Shown piece by piece: positions 24,569 to 33,028 of a DNA stretch of 47,999 nt. Position 1 is the stretch's first letter, and each line of letters opens with the position of its first letter. This stretch comes from Pseudomonadota bacterium (GTDB lineage Bacteria > Myxococcota_A > Bradymonadia > UBA4248): positions 1 to 47,999 of the forward strand of contig JAFOHE010000049.1 of the NCBI GenBank assembly GCA_017421975.1, read 5' to 3'. Below the pieces are notes generated by a model, which saw only the letters and a list, made by a program, of their open reading frames with translations, had not been told where the DNA came from and ran no database searches. The position numbers and the translations under genes were made by a program.

Positions 24569-25579
24569 TTAGCGAAGGTGTTTGATAATCGAACGGACGA
24601 GGTCGCGTATGCCATCTTGGGATTGGCAGCTGATGGCGTGAAATTCATAACCTTTTTCGCCAAAATATTTGGACAAACGCGGAATTTCGGAAGCGACGTA
24701 TTCTTCATCGCACTTATTGAGGACGACGATTTGTTTTTTTGATGCGAGTTCTTCGCTGAATTTGGCGAGTTCGAGATTGAGTTTTTCGAAATCGTGGATG
24801 GGATCGCGATCTGTTTCACACCCCTCAAGCTGATAAGTGACTTCGATGAGGTGAACGAGGATGCGCGTGCGTTCGAGGTGTTTAAGGAAGTCGTGGCCTA
24901 AACCTTTGCCATCGCTTGCACCGACGATGAGGCCAGGCACATCAGCGACGACGAAGGGATGATTTTCGAACATTTCGACGACGCCTAAATGGGGTGTGAG
25001 CGTCGTGAATGGGTAATCAGCAATTGTCGGACGTGCATTGGAAATACAGGAAATGAAGGTTGATTTGCCGACGCTTGGGAAGCCCAAAAGACCGACATCG
25101 GCGAGCAATTTTAGTTCGAGGCGAAGGCTTCGCTGTTCGCCGCGTCTGCCGCGTTCGGCGATGTGTGGCGAACGGTTCGTTGCCGTCGCGAAGTGAACGT
25201 TTCCGCGTCCACCGCGTCCGCCTTTGGCGACAATGACTTTTTGACCTGCTTCGGTAATATCACCGATTTGTTCGCCGCTTTCGATATCGAAAATGAGCGT
25301 GCCGACGGGAACAGGCACCGTAATGGTTTCGCCATTTTTACCGTGCAATTTTTCGCGTCCGCCGGGGGCACCATTTTTAGCGCGTAAAAAACGTCTATAA
25401 CGCAGATGGCTCAAAGTATTGACGCCGGCATCGCCGAGCAGAATGACGTCGCCGCCTTTTCCGCCGTCGCCGCCATCAGGACCACCTGTGGGGGTGAACA
25501 TTTCTCGTCTGAAAGAGGCTTTTCCGTCACCGCCTTTACCAGCAGTTGCCTCAACTTTGATTTCGTCTACAAATTTCAT
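24569..25579 (-). CDS. obg: GTPase Obg/CgtA (336 aa)
   Basis: MKFVDEIKVEATAGKGGDGKASFRREMFTPTGGPDGGDGGKGGDVIL is the Obg fold. G-domain motifs GFPSVGKST and DVPGLI. Downstream of rplU-rpmA. Confidence 0.96.
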   Translation of the reverse strand: MKFVDEIKVEATAGKGGDGKASFRREMFTPTGGPDGGDGGKGGDVILLGDAGVNTLSHLRYRRFLRAKNGAPGGREKLHGKNGETITVPVPVGTLIFDIESGEQIGDITEAGQKVIVAKGGRGGRGNVHFATATNRSPHIAERGRRGEQRSLRLELKLLADVGLLGFPSVGKSTFISCISNARPTIADYPFTTLTPHLGVVEMFENHPFVVADVPGLIVGASDGKGLGHDFLKHLERTRILVHLIEVTYQLEGCETDRDPIHDFEKLNLELAKFSEELASKKQIVVLNKCDEEYVASEIPRLSKYFGEKGYEFHAISCQSQDGIRDLVRSIIKHLR

Positions 25580-25803
25580 CGTTCTAAGGGATTGTCAGGC
25601 TCGAAGTCTTATAAAAACTTCGGATACGCAACGTGATGTGGCTTACCGTGCCGAAGATTTTGATTTCAGAGCAATGTCAAAAAATAGATGGGCTTAAAAT
25701 ACAAAAAAACACAAAAAGAATCGCAGAATAGAAGACAAGCGATGCTTTTTGTGTCTCGATGGGAGACGCGTGAACAGCGTCTCCAATAAGGCTTAACGTG
25801 AGT

Positions 25804-26064
25804 TTAGCCTTCGGCGGGAACAACGCTGACGCGTTTTTTGCCGCGACCATAAGTTTCGAAGCTGACGACGCCGTCTACGAGTGCGAAGAGCGTCCAGTCA
25901 CGGCCAACGCCGACATTCTGACCGGGGTGAACTTGCGTTCCACACTGACGGACAATAATGTTGCCTGCGCGGCAAGCCTGACCACCGTAAAGTTTTACAC
26001 CGCGATACTGAGGATTGCTATCGCGTCCGTTACGGCTTGAACCTTGACCTTTCTTATGAGCCAT
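25804..26064 (-). CDS. rpmA: 50S ribosomal protein L27
   Basis: [29 protein letters not shown]... is canonical L27. Confidence 0.97.
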
Positions 26065-28735: not shown

Positions 28736-29893
28736 TTACTCGAAGCCCGGCAAAAATCCCGTCGTTTTTTCGGGCGGTTTTTTCGGGCTCCGTTTTCCTG
28801 TTTTCTTTTGATGTGTGTTTTCCGAAACACGAGCGCGCGCTTCGGCATCCGATGGGGTGTACACAGCGTCTGCAATGGGTGGGGTTTCAGGGACGGCAGA
28901 CGGTTGGACTTCGGGTGCTGAGACTTCCTTGGCTTGATACTTTCGGGCACGCATCTTACGCACGTCATCGGCTTGTGTATCAGGTACCCAGACAGATGGG
29001 GTGAGTTGTGCCGTCGTCATTGGCGAAGTCAATGAAGAAGGCTGCATGGCTGGAGCCGTTTCATGGGCTTCATCGACGTGGTCGTTTTGCGTTGCATCTG
29101 CCAATGGGGATGCGTCGTCCGTAAGACGGTCAAAGAGCGAAGATTGGGGGGGATTGACCCAGTTGAGACTCAGGATTCTCGAAAGGCGAAAACGGCGGTT
29201 TTCTTTGCGCGTGTGACAGTAGGCAATCAGGTATTTTTCGGCATTGATTTCGATGGGCGTGATGCGCCGCGTCGAAAATTCACCGCGCGTTCCTGTGTAG
29301 TAACTCATGTCCAGATCGAGTTTTTCGTCGATAGCACGCTTTAGGACGGCAATGTGATCCTGAAGACCTTTGTCTTCATCACGCGTCGAATCGGGGGTGT
29401 GTACAGCCCAGGAATCATTCATGGCACCGGCAAACCAATTGAGAAGGTCGTATGCCTCGATTTCAAGGCGCACGGCGTCGTGGGCACCGAAGGTTTTGAG
29501 AATTTGATCTCTGAACTGAAGAAGTGCCGTTTCTGAGATTGTCGTCGAGGCAAAACGCGTGAGATGGCTTGTTAGAATGACGGCCATGGCAACCGCGGCA
29601 CGCGTCTCTGTGTCATTGATCGTCAGAGGCACATTGGGGGAAATCAGCGGACGGTTAGCACCGTGGAATTCTCGCGGTTTCTGTTCCGATAAATAGGTTG
29701 CCAGTTTTCCGCTAAGAAGCGGCGGTGCAAGATGACGGGCATCCGTAATGGGTTCATCTGTCCGATCGAGCGTCGGAAGGGATGATATAGCCGAATCAGG
29801 GGGTTCTGGGGTCTTTTTTTCGTCGGCACGATCCTTGAGCCAGCGTTCAAACTGCGTTTCCTTGTGATCTGACATTGCTCCATCCTCTCTCAT
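28736..29893 (-). CDS. WYL-domain protein with long low-complexity tails (385 aa; 379 aa if it starts at ATG 29875)
   Basis: Central block LDMSYYTGTRGEFSTRRITPIEINAEKYLIAYCHTRKENRRFRLSRILSL matches the WYL domain pattern (R-x-I-x-P ... YL-x-A-x-C ... R-x-FR-x-SRI). I recognise no N-terminal HTH. The C-terminus is P/S/T/A-rich. Confidence 0.7.
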   Translation of the reverse strand: MREDGAMSDHKETQFERWLKDRADEKKTPEPPDSAISSLPTLDRTDEPITDARHLAPPLLSGKLATYLSEQKPREFHGANRPLISPNVPLTINDTETRAAVAMAVILTSHLTRFASTTISETALLQFRDQILKTFGAHDAVRLEIEAYDLLNWFAGAMNDSWAVHTPDSTRDEDKGLQDHIAVLKRAIDEKLDLDMSYYTGTRGEFSTRRITPIEINAEKYLIAYCHTRKENRRFRLSRILSLNWVNPPQSSLFDRLTDDASPLADATQNDHVDEAHETAPAMQPSSLTSPMTTAQLTPSVWVPDTQADDVRKMRARKYQAKEVSAPEVQPSAVPETPPIADAVYTPSDAEARARVSENTHQKKTGKRSPKKPPEKTTGFLPGFE

Positions 29894-29945
29894 AGCGGTT
29901 TGGCAGCATCATGTTGTGCCTGGGGTCCGGGGCGAAGCCCGCGGC

Positions 29946-30052
29946 GAGGGGGGCGCGCCGTATTTCCATGTGTTGTCAAAACGTGTGTTTGCTAAAAGAC
30001 CGCGTCAGCGAAGCACTCGGAAATAGGCGCGTGGGGGGACACTTCCCCCCTC
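29946..30052 (-). repeat. Composite structured element E2 (G6/C6 hairpin plus TAT/ATA-C core with 51-nt loop plus distal C-run)
   Basis: The minus strand reads GAGGGGGG-AAGTGT-CCCCCC-A-CGCGCC-TAT-TTCC...GGAA-ATA-C-GGCGCG-CCCCCCTC. The distal CCCCCCTC can pair with the 5' GAGGGGGG. The flanks are homologous to E1 at 32116-32225. Confidence 0.65.
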
Positions 30053-30074
30053 AAAAAAATGTCCCTGCGCGGGA

Positions 30075-31955
30075 TCAGTTGATTTTGTCTCCCAAGATGT
30101 AAAGCTCATCGATGCGCCAGGTCGCGTTTGTATCGGAATTGCCGTAATTATAAAGATTGAGCGTGACGTCGGTGTTCTGGGCACTGTCGAGGACAAAGGA
30201 CCAGGGTTCCCAGGAGCGATCCGTGTGTTTCATCGAATAATTGTCGGCGGTGGCCGAAAGCGTGCCTGCTGTATAGGTTGCGGCAACCATGCCGCTGTTT
30301 GAGCCGCTCGCCGCCATGTACATTTGGACGCGGATGTTCTCAAAGCCGTTCGTGTTGAATTTGACGACGAAATGTTTTTGCGTGAGCGGTGAGGCGAGGC
30401 TCGTATCGGGGCTCCAGCCGTCGGCCGAGATGGCGACGGTAGGAAAACCGGTGACGCCTGTGAGAAGTTTGAGTTCGGTCTTGCCGTTTGTGCCTGCTGT
30501 CGCCGTCAGTACGGCTGAAGCGGCGTTTGCGCCCTCTTCAGCTTTTGCGGATGCGACGGTGTCGTTCTTTTCACCCAGGGATTCGAATGTCCAGTGAGCA
30601 ATGACATCGCCGACGATTTCGGTGGCATTGACGACCCACTGGCGGTACTTTTCTTCAGTGACAAAGCCTTCTTCGCCAGGATAACCCATTTGAATGGGGC
30701 AGTTGTAGAAGCCGCCGCTGCCCTGTTTGGCGTTAATCTGGAAGGCGCAGTCGTATGTGCCGGGGCCCCAGCCCGTAGGATTGAGCCAGGCGTTCATCAG
30801 GACAGTCGAGGGATCGCCGTCGTCATCGTCAGTGACGGCAAAATTCGGATACGACGCTTTGAAGCTCCAAAGGTAAGTCTGAAGTTCAGCATGACCGCAG
30901 ACGAGGCGCCCGTAAAGGTCGGATTCATCGACGCGTTCCGGATCGACGACGATGTTGAGCTTGCCTTGAAGCCAGGTCTCGTTGGATGTTGGATCGACGT
31001 ACGTCGTCATTTCGGCGAATTCACACATCTCAATGCCGTCGCGGGGCTGGTCGGCAATTACGCATGTGCCCTTGCTATAACCTTTACAGTCTCTGGAGCA
31101 GCCGGGTTCACCGCCGGAAACGTAAGAAAGCCCCTGTTTGGAGATATCGGCGTAATCGTAGCACGTCGGGAAAGTCGAATGGATGGGTTTGCCATCTTTG
31201 CCTGTATCACAAAGCTCGCTCGATTGGCGGATGCCGTCGCCGCACGTCGTGATGACGCAGTTTTCAGTCGTGATTTCGGAACAGTCGTCGCTGCACGTGA
31301 GCGTGCCTTCGTAATTGAAAGTATGATCGAGGGATTCGATATTATTGCATGTGTAGGCACCGAAGTCGTGGTAGTCGCAGACGTCGTCACCGTCGATTCT
31401 TCGGTTCCCGCAGAGCGTCGGTTTGGAAGCATCCTGACAGATGCCGTTGGAACACGTCGGCCTCGCGGATGGACAGGGGTCGGGTATGCGCTTGCCCTGG
31501 ACGCAGATCAGGCGGACAGTGGCATCATTTTCGTCGCAGATGACGGGATCGTCGTCATTGCACGTCGTTGCCTGACCACATGCATCGCCTGTGCACGTGG
31601 ATGGCACACATTGACCGGCCTGGCACAGACCGTCATCGGGACACGCTTCTTCGGTGATGATGCCATCTTTGCATACAGATTGAGCGTGTGGATCGGTGCC
31701 ACAAGTAACATTGTAGGTGGCCTCGTCGCATATCAGACGCGTATCAACACATTGTGTATCGTTGACGCAAATGCGGTCATTGGTGCAGGTTTCCGTATGG
31801 CTTGTTCCGTTGATGCAAGTTGTCAGGACGCCGTCCTTACAGAACGTTGCCGTACCTTTTTCAGGACAGTTGGTATTGTCCGAATCGTCTTCGCGAGAGC
31901 AGCCAAAGAGGCTGGAAGAAAGGATGATACAGAAAACCAGAGCTCGAATTTTCAT
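30075..31955 (-). CDS. Secreted Cys-rich protein, probable lipoprotein, with non-Cys C-terminal beta-rich domain (626 aa)
   Basis: Start at MKIRALVFCIILSSSLFGC (signal peptide plus lipobox-like LFGC). The N-terminal ~290 aa are densely Cys-rich (C-x-DG/NG-x-C patterns). The C-terminal ~330 aa have few Cys and end WRIDELYILGDKIN. A T7 run with a small hairpin follows the stop on the minus strand (~30053-30074). Confidence 0.8.
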   Translation of the reverse strand: MKIRALVFCIILSSSLFGCSREDDSDNTNCPEKGTATFCKDGVLTTCINGTSHTETCTNDRICVNDTQCVDTRLICDEATYNVTCGTDPHAQSVCKDGIITEEACPDDGLCQAGQCVPSTCTGDACGQATTCNDDDPVICDENDATVRLICVQGKRIPDPCPSARPTCSNGICQDASKPTLCGNRRIDGDDVCDYHDFGAYTCNNIESLDHTFNYEGTLTCSDDCSEITTENCVITTCGDGIRQSSELCDTGKDGKPIHSTFPTCYDYADISKQGLSYVSGGEPGCSRDCKGYSKGTCVIADQPRDGIEMCEFAEMTTYVDPTSNETWLQGKLNIVVDPERVDESDLYGRLVCGHAELQTYLWSFKASYPNFAVTDDDDGDPSTVLMNAWLNPTGWGPGTYDCAFQINAKQGSGGFYNCPIQMGYPGEEGFVTEEKYRQWVVNATEIVGDVIAHWTFESLGEKNDTVASAKAEEGANAASAVLTATAGTNGKTELKLLTGVTGFPTVAISADGWSPDTSLASPLTQKHFVVKFNTNGFENIRVQMYMAASGSNSGMVAATYTAGTLSATADNYSMKHTDRSWEPWSFVLDSAQNTDVTLNLYNYGNSDTNATWRIDELYILGDKIN

Positions 31956-32056
31956 TTTGAGACCTCGCAAATATCATTATATATGAATGATGGTGCTGTA
32001 TGTGTGACCACTCGGTGGCATCGCAGAGAGAGGGTTCATACAAAACAAGCGCAAGA

Positions 32057-32070
32057 AAAATGCGCATTTT
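32057..32070. promoter_or_regulatory. 14-bp perfect palindrome AAAATGCGCATTTT, candidate operator
   Basis: Perfect dyad about 100 bp upstream of the start of the 626-aa lipoprotein gene (minus strand). A near-identical site lies at 32538-32551. Confidence 0.35.
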
Positions 32071-32115
32071 GAACGACGTATGACATTGACAGAAAAGCGC
32101 ACTTCCGTTTGGGAT

Positions 32116-32225
32116 GAGGGGGGAAGCCTCCCCCTGCGCGGCTATATTTAATGTGGCCTGAAGGATCGAAAGCCATACAGTACATTTATATCCATGCCAC
32201 ATTAAATATACGCCGCTACCCCCTC
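32116..32225 (+). repeat. Composite structured element E1 (G6/C5 hairpin plus TAT/ATA-C core with 12-bp inner stem plus distal C-run)
   Basis: GAGGGGGG-AAGCCT-CCCCC-T-GCGCGGC-TAT-ATTTAATGTGGC...38 nt...GCCACATTAAAT-ATA-C-GCCGC-TA-CCCCCTC. The flanks are homologous to E2. Confidence 0.65.
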
Positions 32226-32250
32226 GTTCTTCAGAGTGTGTGCGCAAAAA

Positions 32251-32466
32251 CTAGGGATCTTCGCACGTATTTGTTTTGCAAACCTGGTTTGCGGAACATT
32301 CCCAGTGAGCGATTTCACCATGTGTACAGATTTCGACGGTTGTCTCGTTGAGACAGGAACGTTCGAAGGTAGATTCATCGCAAGTGTAGTCGTCTCCGGA
32401 ACATGCGGACATGAGGCATACGGCGATGAGGTATGTGGAAGGTATGAGATATTTCAGGCAATTCAT
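32251..32466 (-). CDS. Small Cys-rich lipoprotein-like protein (71 aa)
   Basis: MNCLKYLIPSTYLIAVCLMSAC gives a signal peptide plus lipobox-like LMSAC. The mature part has 6 further Cys in the same style as the large Cys-rich proteins. A short ORF, so only moderately supported. Confidence 0.5.
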   Translation of the reverse strand: MNCLKYLIPSTYLIAVCLMSACSGDDYTCDESTFERSCLNETTVEICTHGEIAHWECSANQVCKTNTCEDP

Positions 32467-32537
32467 GACAATGCTCCAAACAGAAAAGTGTCAGCCAACG
32501 CATAGACAAATACAAAACATGATTCTGAATTACAAAC

Positions 32538-32551
32538 AAAAATGCGCATTT
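32538..32551. promoter_or_regulatory. Second copy of the AAAAATGCGCATTT dyad, candidate operator
   Basis: AAAAATGCGCATTT (palindromic core AAATGCGCATTT) about 75 bp upstream of the start of the 71-aa gene. A half-site, TGCGCATTT, is at ~32661-32669. Confidence 0.3.
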
Positions 32552-33028
32552 GAGGCGGATTTTCGGGACAACAAGGCAAAAAGTGGCGGTAAAGTGAGAT
32601 GCGTTACGGGGCGTGATTGCATAATTTGTAAGTGTTTAATGTTGAGAACTGATGCCATGTTGCGCATTTGATTATGTTGGTGAAGGATAGCCGCATGGGC
32701 TGAGAAAAGTACAGTTATGGTGGTGATGGGGAGTGCAATTGAAAAGCGAGGCAGTTTTAATACAGCCGTAAGCCTGGCAAATGACTACAAAAGGCTGTAC
32801 TGCAAAAGGTTGTACGGAGAGGGAAAGCATGCGATTAAAAAATGAAATGAGACATCAAGCCGTGTATGGGGTGAATTTAGCAGAAAAGTTACATATTTTT
32901 ATGGTGTTAAGAATAAAATAGTTGCAAAAGAAAAAAAGTAAGGTTAGAAAATGCAAAGCAAAAAAGAAAGCGTCGATGACAAGAATAGGTGTTGTGGATG
33001 CTTATTAACACACATTATGGAGGAAACA

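Follow-up and report, generated by a model that had tools for sequence, protein, structure and literature searches.

The window analyzed here is a stretch of 47,999 nt on contig C329 of a gut Myxococcota metagenome-assembled genome (MAG; 3.63 Mb in 384 contigs, 47.8% G+C; hereafter G000). We focused on a pair of look-alike inverted elements in this window, E2 and E1, which bracket the gene for a Cys-rich lipoprotein, Lipo626 (Table 1). E2 lies between the stop codon of Lipo626 (22 nt away) and the start of a WYL-domain protein gene, in sense orientation. E1 lies between the stop codon of a second lipoprotein gene, Lipo71, and the promoter region of Lipo626, and is antisense to both neighbors. 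The layout of the genes around the two elements was as given in an earlier note on this DNA, from which Lipo71 was absent. That note had proposed that the pair delimits a mobile or invertible cassette, that the elements are cis-regulatory RNAs with switch-like folding, or that they are simply the largest members of a hairpin family.

The likeness of E1 and E2 lies in their flanks. Two pairs of inverted arms were found, 30023-30053 with 32115-32145 (84% complementary over 31 nt) and 29945-29963 with 32208-32226 (84% complementary over 19 nt), and the motif GAGGGGGGAAG-N2-5-CCCCC matched the window at E1 and E2 only (0 matches expected, 100 shuffles). Read on their own strands, both elements have the order TGA-G6-AAGNNT-C5/6-N-(outer stem)-TAT-core-ATA-C-(outer stem)-N0-2-C5/6-TCG, in which the C following ATA is unpaired. 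The cores are unrelated, with TAT-to-ATA lengths of about 62 nt in E1 and about 57 nt in E2, and the first description of common flanks around unrelated cores was thus confirmed. This similarity is not special to the pair. Among copies elsewhere in G000, E2 is surpassed as a match to the E1 flanks by 137 of 192, and E1 as a match to the E2 flanks by 65 of 193. E1 and E2 are therefore not a matched pair, and what they share is the consensus of a repeat family with about 200 copies.

Table 1 Features at the E1/E2 locus (window coordinates).
Feature	Position	Strand	Details
WYL-domain protein gene	28736..29893	-	start 52 nt beyond E2 3' end
E2, composite, no GTAG tag	29945..30053	-	pattern, arms, folding
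E2, 5' parts		-	T-run 30060-30054; TGA 30053-30051; G6 30050-30045; loop AAGTGT 30044-30039; C6 30038-30033
E2, junction		-	outer stem CGCGCC 30031-30026; TAT 30025-30023; about 57-nt core; ATA 29963-29961; bulged C 29960
E2, 3' parts		-	outer stem GGCGCG 29959-29954; C6 29953-29948; TCG 29947-29945
Lipo626, 626-aa Cys-rich lipoprotein gene	30075..31955	-	no Pfam match
Dyad AAATGCGCATTTT upstream of Lipo626	32058..32070	.	repeated at 32539-32551 upstream of Lipo71
E1, composite, type-B-like tail	32115..32226	+	pattern, arms, folding
E1, 5' parts		+	TGA from T32115; G6 32118-32123; loop AAGCCT 32124-32129; C5 32130-32134
E1, junction		+	outer stem GCGGC 32138-32142; TAT 32143-32145; 62-nt core hairpin; ATA 32208-32210; bulged C 32211
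E1, 3' parts		+	outer stem GCCGC 32212-32216; TA 32217-32218, giving GTAG on the bottom strand
E1, end		+	C5 32219-32223; TCG 32224-32226; family tail TTCTTC..AGTG continues to about 32238
Lipo71, 71-aa Cys-rich lipoprotein gene	32251..32466	-	conserved upstream partner of Lipo626

The search of the genome for further flank copies, which the earlier note had suggested, revealed at least 193 composite copies in G000. The scan pattern consisted of a C-run, outer stem, TAT, 6-213 nt, ATA-C, outer stem and C-run; the cores of the matches were 6-213 nt long (median 43 nt), and nearly all of the 193 had a G5-loop-C5 hairpin and a T-rich run in front. A strict, sequence-free scan for the bulged-C junction detected 325 hairpin loci, including 137 composite ones (430 raw matches versus 95 in the reversed genome). 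The loci are intergenic, apart from 18 of the 325 that lie deep inside called open reading frames (ORFs). The membership of E1 and E2 in a hairpin family is thus confirmed; they are not its largest members, as cores reach 213 nt. In spacers between tandem genes, sense copies outnumbered antisense copies by 105 to 49 (68% sense), with a median distance of 57 nt between the sense copies and the upstream stop codon. The family also systematically breaks contigs when genomes of this lineage are assembled with short k. Two independent k=31 Logan contigs, L009 and L010, which encode the identical Lipo626 protein, both end precisely where E1 has its 3' edge (window position 32237).

The modules of the composite copies are mosaic. 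Tail A (TCTGCGGGGG-loop-CCCCCGCAACGCCCCC) was present in 124 copies and tail B (TCGTTCTCC..AGTG), which is carried by E1, in 57; the tail of E2, TCGCCGCGGG, is of neither type. The loop AAGTCT accompanied tail B in 49 of the 57 cases. The inner hairpins include two subfamilies, a cluster of 35 copies of S1 (GGGACGTTCCATGGAACGTCCC type) and one of 22 copies of S2, each found with both tails, and the presence of subfamilies of this size indicates amplification. TA steps between the outer stem and the C-runs place the tetranucleotide GTAG at the hairpin foot of the bottom strand (TACC after the stem) in 117 of the 137 composite copies, E1 among them, and this holds for the composite subfamily only. 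E1 and E2 belong to this G5/C5-flanked, GTAG-tagged composite subfamily. Any of the inner hairpins (S1, S2, an 80-nt nested S3 and a duplicated S1) can be found with tail A or tail B, a pattern that looks as though palindromes had been inserted or swapped at the apex of the junction box, between TAT and ATA. A "recombinant" combination of loop and tail was observed in 21 of 181 composite copies.

To place the repeat in a wider context, we used a comparison set of 17 genomes of the family, including G001 from the same genus (g1), G002, and G011 from genus g4, together with 24 class-level outgroups. An exact 27-mer of the 5' module, GGGGGAAGTCTCCCCCTRCGCGGCTAT, was found in at least 10 related MAG species labeled Myxococcota or Myxococcales, with buffalo rectum, roe deer omasum and termite gut among their sources. 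The coding DNA of these species is 65-80% identical to that of G000, indicating that the flank is far better conserved than the genes. G000 has 117 occurrences of a 16-mer, CCCCCTACGCGGCTAT, and G001 has 155; each of the other 15 family genomes (G002 included) has 0-15, and the 24 outgroups have none.

The positions of the copies are not conserved along with their sequence. Of 16 syntenic spacers that are occupied in other species, 2 also have a composite in G000. Window 25579-25804 is an example of an empty site, a copy being present there in G001. Another G001 copy lies between the WYL and CDP-alcohol phosphatidyltransferase genes, which have no spacer between them in G000. Judged from these sequence comparisons, the family spreads as DNA and its copies turn over, being present in some genomes and absent from others at orthologous spacers. 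The lipoprotein locus itself has a different history. Thirteen of the 17 family genomes have kept the Lipo71-Lipo626 gene pair, which lies beside p215-PNP in G001, G002 and G011, the Lipo626 orthologs being 46% identical in G001 and 39% in G002. The two genes of G001 are separated by 88 nt, and no hairpin was found anywhere in the 4.8-kb locus; WYL-CDPOH is conserved in this genome, with the lipoprotein unit on another contig. G002 has a plain hairpin (-) 200 nt beyond the stop codon of Lipo626 and a composite (+) upstream of Lipo71, which form an inverted pair at other positions. A copy between Lipo71 and Lipo626 was found in G000 only, and no element was found upstream of the WYL orthologs of G001 and G002. 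The comparison with relatives suggested in the earlier note thus showed that the gene pair is kept, while the elements are missing (G001) or elsewhere (G002), and the absence of an element from the WYL orthologs, taken together with this, excludes both a mobile cassette and a conserved WYL leader. Lipo626 is a conserved chromosomal gene, not the cargo of a mobile element, and has one repeat copy on either side by happenstance.

Two further observations concern the order of genes at this locus. The Lipo626 ortholog is co-directional with p215-PNP in g4 (L116, G011) and divergent from them in g1, indicating that the whole lipoprotein unit was inverted at some point in the history of the family. 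E2 coincides with a synteny breakpoint between G000 and G002.

The orientation of neighboring copies follows a rule. Among neighbors 0.2-6 kb apart in G000, 48 of 61 were inverted and 13 direct (p 7.7e-6), and at the loci of other species 18 of 19 neighbors were inverted (18:1, p 7.6e-5). The inverted excess fades past 5-10 kb. The 5' ends face inward, as in E2/E1, in 33 of the inverted pairs of G000, and the 3' ends do so in 15. The direction of the genes is no explanation, because 68% sense orientation in tandem spacers would alone predict mostly direct neighbors. The similarity of partners (0.51) is no higher than that of random pairs (0.50), and an origin of the pairs by local duplicative inversion was rejected on this basis. 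The meaning that the earlier note saw in the inverted arrangement has a genome-wide basis: E1 and E2 would be inverted because direct copies 0.2-6 kb apart are missing throughout the genome. Among the gene-containing pairs of G000 with 5' ends inward, 22 of 29 enclose co-directional runs of genes. The bracketed genes include alaS (AlaRS)-, glyA-, clpB- and metH-like genes, and no enrichment of lipoproteins was detected among them by lipobox, Cys-rich and signal-peptide analysis. To our knowledge, no kilobase-scale rule of inverted neighbors has been reported for repetitive extragenic palindromic (REP) sequences.

A regular alternation was seen on the 84-kb contig C46 of G001, where six successive composites are strictly - + - + - +, with short -+ gaps (4.5, 1.45 and 2.6 kb) and long +- gaps (26 and 19 kb). 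In the pair on this contig that encloses the CDP-alcohol phosphatidyltransferase gene (L007 9582-9610 (-) and 12216-12244 (+)), both copies have the same inner hairpin, TTCGCATGCGAA.

Two families of HUH genes are candidates for the mobilizing enzymes. The Pfam Y1_Tnp model had a single match in G000, HUH-1 (C157:1120-1635), which scored 67 bits (E 1.6e-18) against NCBIfam REP_Tyr_transpos versus 26 bits against IS200, and whose stop codon is followed by three family hairpins within 150 nt. HUH-2 carries HxH and C-terminal Tyr motifs and scored 45 bits against the REP_Tyr_transpos model. Copies of HUH-2 were found on C365 (cut by the contig end) and at C335:295-993 in G000, and on C52 and C109 in G001. 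Overall, the gene was detected in 7 of the 17 family genomes (G000, G001, four of g4 and, as a weak partial match, G002); the 24 outgroups lacked it. Three co-oriented hairpins precede the copies on C365 of G000 and C52 of G001, and the upstream spacer of the C335 copy has a type-A composite. All three HUH genes of G000 thus adjoin family hairpins. Given that about 10-18% of spacers contain a strict hairpin, three of three is suggestive and not proof. A search of HUH-2 against PDB sequences returned a weak IS200-type match limited to the surroundings of the HUH motif (E 0.003).

The HUH-1 gene is markedly AT-rich relative to the genome. In the region upstream of it (G000:C157:563-1050), GAGCTATAGGGCGGGTCTGA-like units of roughly 21 nt form an array about 490 nt long, interrupted by GGGCGGGTCTGAGACCCGCCC hairpins and repeated ATGGGCATGGGC blocks. 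Elsewhere in the genome, a small serine recombinase (a 176-aa ORF at G000:C123:9097-9489) is encoded on a contig that also carries two composite copies.

We consider E1 and E2 to be, with a probability of roughly 0.7, two independent members of a palindromic DNA repeat that is dispersed and mosaic in gut-associated Myxococcota, resembles REP sequences and bacterial interspersed mosaic elements (BIMEs), has spread at the DNA level, and is found inverted here through the purge of direct pairs. This REP/BIME-like family of gut Myxococcota is apparently undescribed. Each copy combines a short G5-loop-C5 hairpin, an exchangeable inner hairpin of 6-213 nt enclosed by the junction box (outer stem)-TAT ... 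ATA-C-(outer stem), in which a single C is bulged, and a 3' C5 run followed by either tail A (a second G5/C5 hairpin and AACGCCCCC) or tail B. The mobilizing enzymes would most likely be lineage-specific HUH (Y1) single-strand DNA transposases that read the folded hairpin and are similar to REP-associated tyrosine transposases (RAYTs). Direct pairs a few kb apart would promote the loss of the genes between them and be purged, and inverted pairs would be tolerated. The deletion could proceed by HUH-type excision between two sites on one strand or, alternatively, by slipped or distance-dependent RecA-independent recombination between short repeats. Effects at the RNA level, such as 3'-end stabilization or termination, would be secondary, the mild sense bias near stop codons being a hint of them.

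Several observations weigh against this explanation. The purge model leaves unexplained the tandem arrays with spacings below 200 nt, in which 36 of 39 neighbors are direct, and also the predominance in G000 of pairs with 5' ends inward over those with 3' ends inward (33:15, p 0.013), a ratio that is 10:8 elsewhere. The GTAG tag is missing from the 187 non-composite hairpins and from E2. Occupied and empty orthologous spacers (~70% identity) are too diverged to reveal insertion boundaries, a target site or a duplication. As for the enzymes, all three HUH proteins scored below the 80-bit NCBIfam cut-off of REP_Tyr_transpos (67 and 45 bits), the PDB sequence search with HUH-1 gave no match, the HUH-2 orthologs in g4 are not flanked by strict hairpins, and the presence of HUH-2 does not predict the abundance of the exact flank. 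The RAYT link is thus circumstantial. The gene calls, moreover, were made by a crude longest-ORF method.

A stronger version, which we regard as doubtful, is that the repeat is an oriented boundary element and not merely tolerated junk, with copies paired 1-6 kb apart, their 5' (G5-hairpin) ends inward, and single transcription units between them. Active single-strand excision might make same-strand copies within about one replication-fork length lethal and so police the genome architecture, or the elements might act as outward-facing stops or insulators for transcription leaving the unit either way. If true, either mechanism would amount to a rule of chromosome organization not described for REP-type repeats.

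The two functional proposals of the earlier note were weighed against the REP/BIME-like explanation. That the elements are cis-acting structured RNAs is unlikely in our assessment; they would act as a switch in the WYL leader (E2), a terminator, an insulator or a stabilizer, with the G-run alternating between the local and the distal C-run. The two pairings are present as a property of the sequence, and the minimum-energy folds of the elements take different alternatives: RNAfold predicted the distal helix closing the whole element for E1 (-52.7 kcal/mol, z -4.8) and the local G6/C6 hairpin for E2 (-49.8 kcal/mol, z -2.6). Across the family, the local G5/C5 hairpin is supported by the covariation of its closing pair (A-T in 130 and C-G in 36 of 183 copies). 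The distal GAGGGGG/CCCCCTC helix was rejected as a conserved family feature, since the GA..TC extension seen in E1 and E2 occurs in 64 of 183 copies versus about 69 expected by chance, and the invariant G5/C5 runs provide no covariation support for it. The length of the G-run is correlated with that of the local (rho 0.41) and distal (rho 0.32) C-runs, and, for the hairpin of tail A, with that of the unpaired last C-run (rho 0.48); these correlations may reflect shared descent of subfamilies and do not require alternative pairing. The sense bias and the closeness to upstream stop codons would suit an RNA function, whereas one third of the copies are antisense, E1 is antisense to both of its neighbors, and copies occur in both orientations relative to genes. 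A cis-regulatory WYL leader is not supported, as the WYL orthologs lack the element, and the positions of copies are not conserved (2 of 16 syntenic spacers). On neither strand does a U-run come after any of the hairpins, and the counts of sigma-70 promoters and intrinsic terminators at 29700-32700 equal those of shuffles. In a search of the window and eight further loci with copies against Rfam 15, tRNAs alone reached the gathering score, and E-value thresholds yielded no family for the repeat either; the best sub-threshold match over E2 was skipping-rope, with 15.6 bits versus the 36.7 needed.

We judged it quite improbable that E1 and E2 are the recombination sites of an invertible or mobile cassette, i.e., a 2.06-kb segment that switches lipoprotein expression. 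The inverted pair does enclose one complete gene with its promoter region, and inverted neighbors are the rule in the family; the opposite orientations of the lipoprotein unit and p215-PNP in g4 and g1, the breakpoint at E2, and the recombinase ORF on C123 could also be read in this way. However, the gene pair is vertically conserved and syntenic with p215-PNP in G001, G002 and other genera, and the elements are not. E1 and E2 are not mutual closest copies and differ in their cores, and the 48-kb contig had no match to the tyrosine or serine recombinase families PF00589 and PF00239, in line with the earlier note, which saw no recombinase in the window. L009 and L010 both show the window orientation across E2. 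The promoter and dyad lie inside the segment, so that a flip would not switch expression, and AlaRS, GlyA, ClpB and MetH are bracketed by the same arrangement. A very improbable third option is that a site-specific single-strand GIY-YIG nuclease acts on the hairpins, as in the Ssn system of Neisseria with its NTS (dRS3) repeats. Hundreds of oriented hairpin repeats cluster around genes in both cases (PMC11893778), but GIY-YIG domains (PF01541) were detected in G000 and G001 only in ORFs of 635-644 aa, the size of UvrC, and no small Ssn-like gene was found.

The dyad AAATGCGCATTTT is outside the repeat family. It is part of a 17-nt box, AA(G/C)AAAAATGCGCATTT with the dyad AAATGCGCATTT, which is found at window 32053-32070, ~100 nt upstream of Lipo626, and again at 32535-32551, ~75 nt upstream of Lipo71. 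The box is probably an operator or promoter element common to both Cys-rich lipoprotein genes.

The lipoprotein locus thus hides no cassette or riboswitch, and pairs of this kind arise many times per genome from an abundant repeat. What is new is the composite anatomy, the candidate RAYT-like partners (two HUH gene families) and the neighbor-orientation rule. The avoidance of direct neighbors within a few kilobases, which is strong and replicated, provides a simple, testable handle on how hairpin repeats constrain genome stability, or are constrained by it, in an uncultured gut lineage.

Several known systems share features with this repeat. In the pdif (XerC/D) modules of Acinetobacter plasmids and the invertons of gut Bacteroidota, sites alternate in orientation and bracket genes. 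Unlike them, the Myxococcota repeat has no 28-bp Xer-type site or adjacent invertase, is chromosomal with hundreds of sites, and showed no orientation polymorphism in the two Logan contigs at the E2 junction. Like integron attC sites, it conserves structure while its sequence varies, and has extrahelical bases and an apical part of variable length. However, it lacks the RYYYAAC/GTTRRRY box and is scattered singly in both orientations, whereas attC sites form co-oriented arrays behind short cassettes. The genes bracketed by the Myxococcota copies are housekeeping genes. The NTS (dRS3) repeats of Neisseria surround genes, are targets of the Ssn nuclease and modulate transformation (PMC11893778). 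The likeness to them includes oriented hairpin repeats in hundreds of copies surrounding genes, and a cognate gene flanked by its own repeats. Unlike in Neisseria, G000 and G001 have no small GIY-YIG gene, and the candidate enzyme is of the HUH/Y1 type.

The closest resemblance is to REPs, BIMEs and REPINs with their RAYT (TnpA-REP) Y1 HUH transposases (PMC3733652, PMC3116915, PMC8266576). Shared features are short imperfect intergenic palindromes in hundreds of copies and both orientations, mosaic modules, subfamilies that behave as sequence populations, RAYT-like genes adjoining copies, and the restriction of repeat and candidate enzyme to one lineage. In the composite subfamily, one strand also has the classical REP tag GTAG (PMC3733652) at the base of its hairpin. 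Unlike in REPs, the plain hairpins are untagged and the scores of the HUH proteins do not reach the curated cut-off for RAYTs. The Myxococcota repeat further differs in that its conservation is limited to the G5/C5 modules and a small junction box with a bulged C, in having an exchangeable apical hairpin (6-213 nt; S1, S2 or S3 with either tail), and in a flank that is identical across species with 65-80% identical genes.

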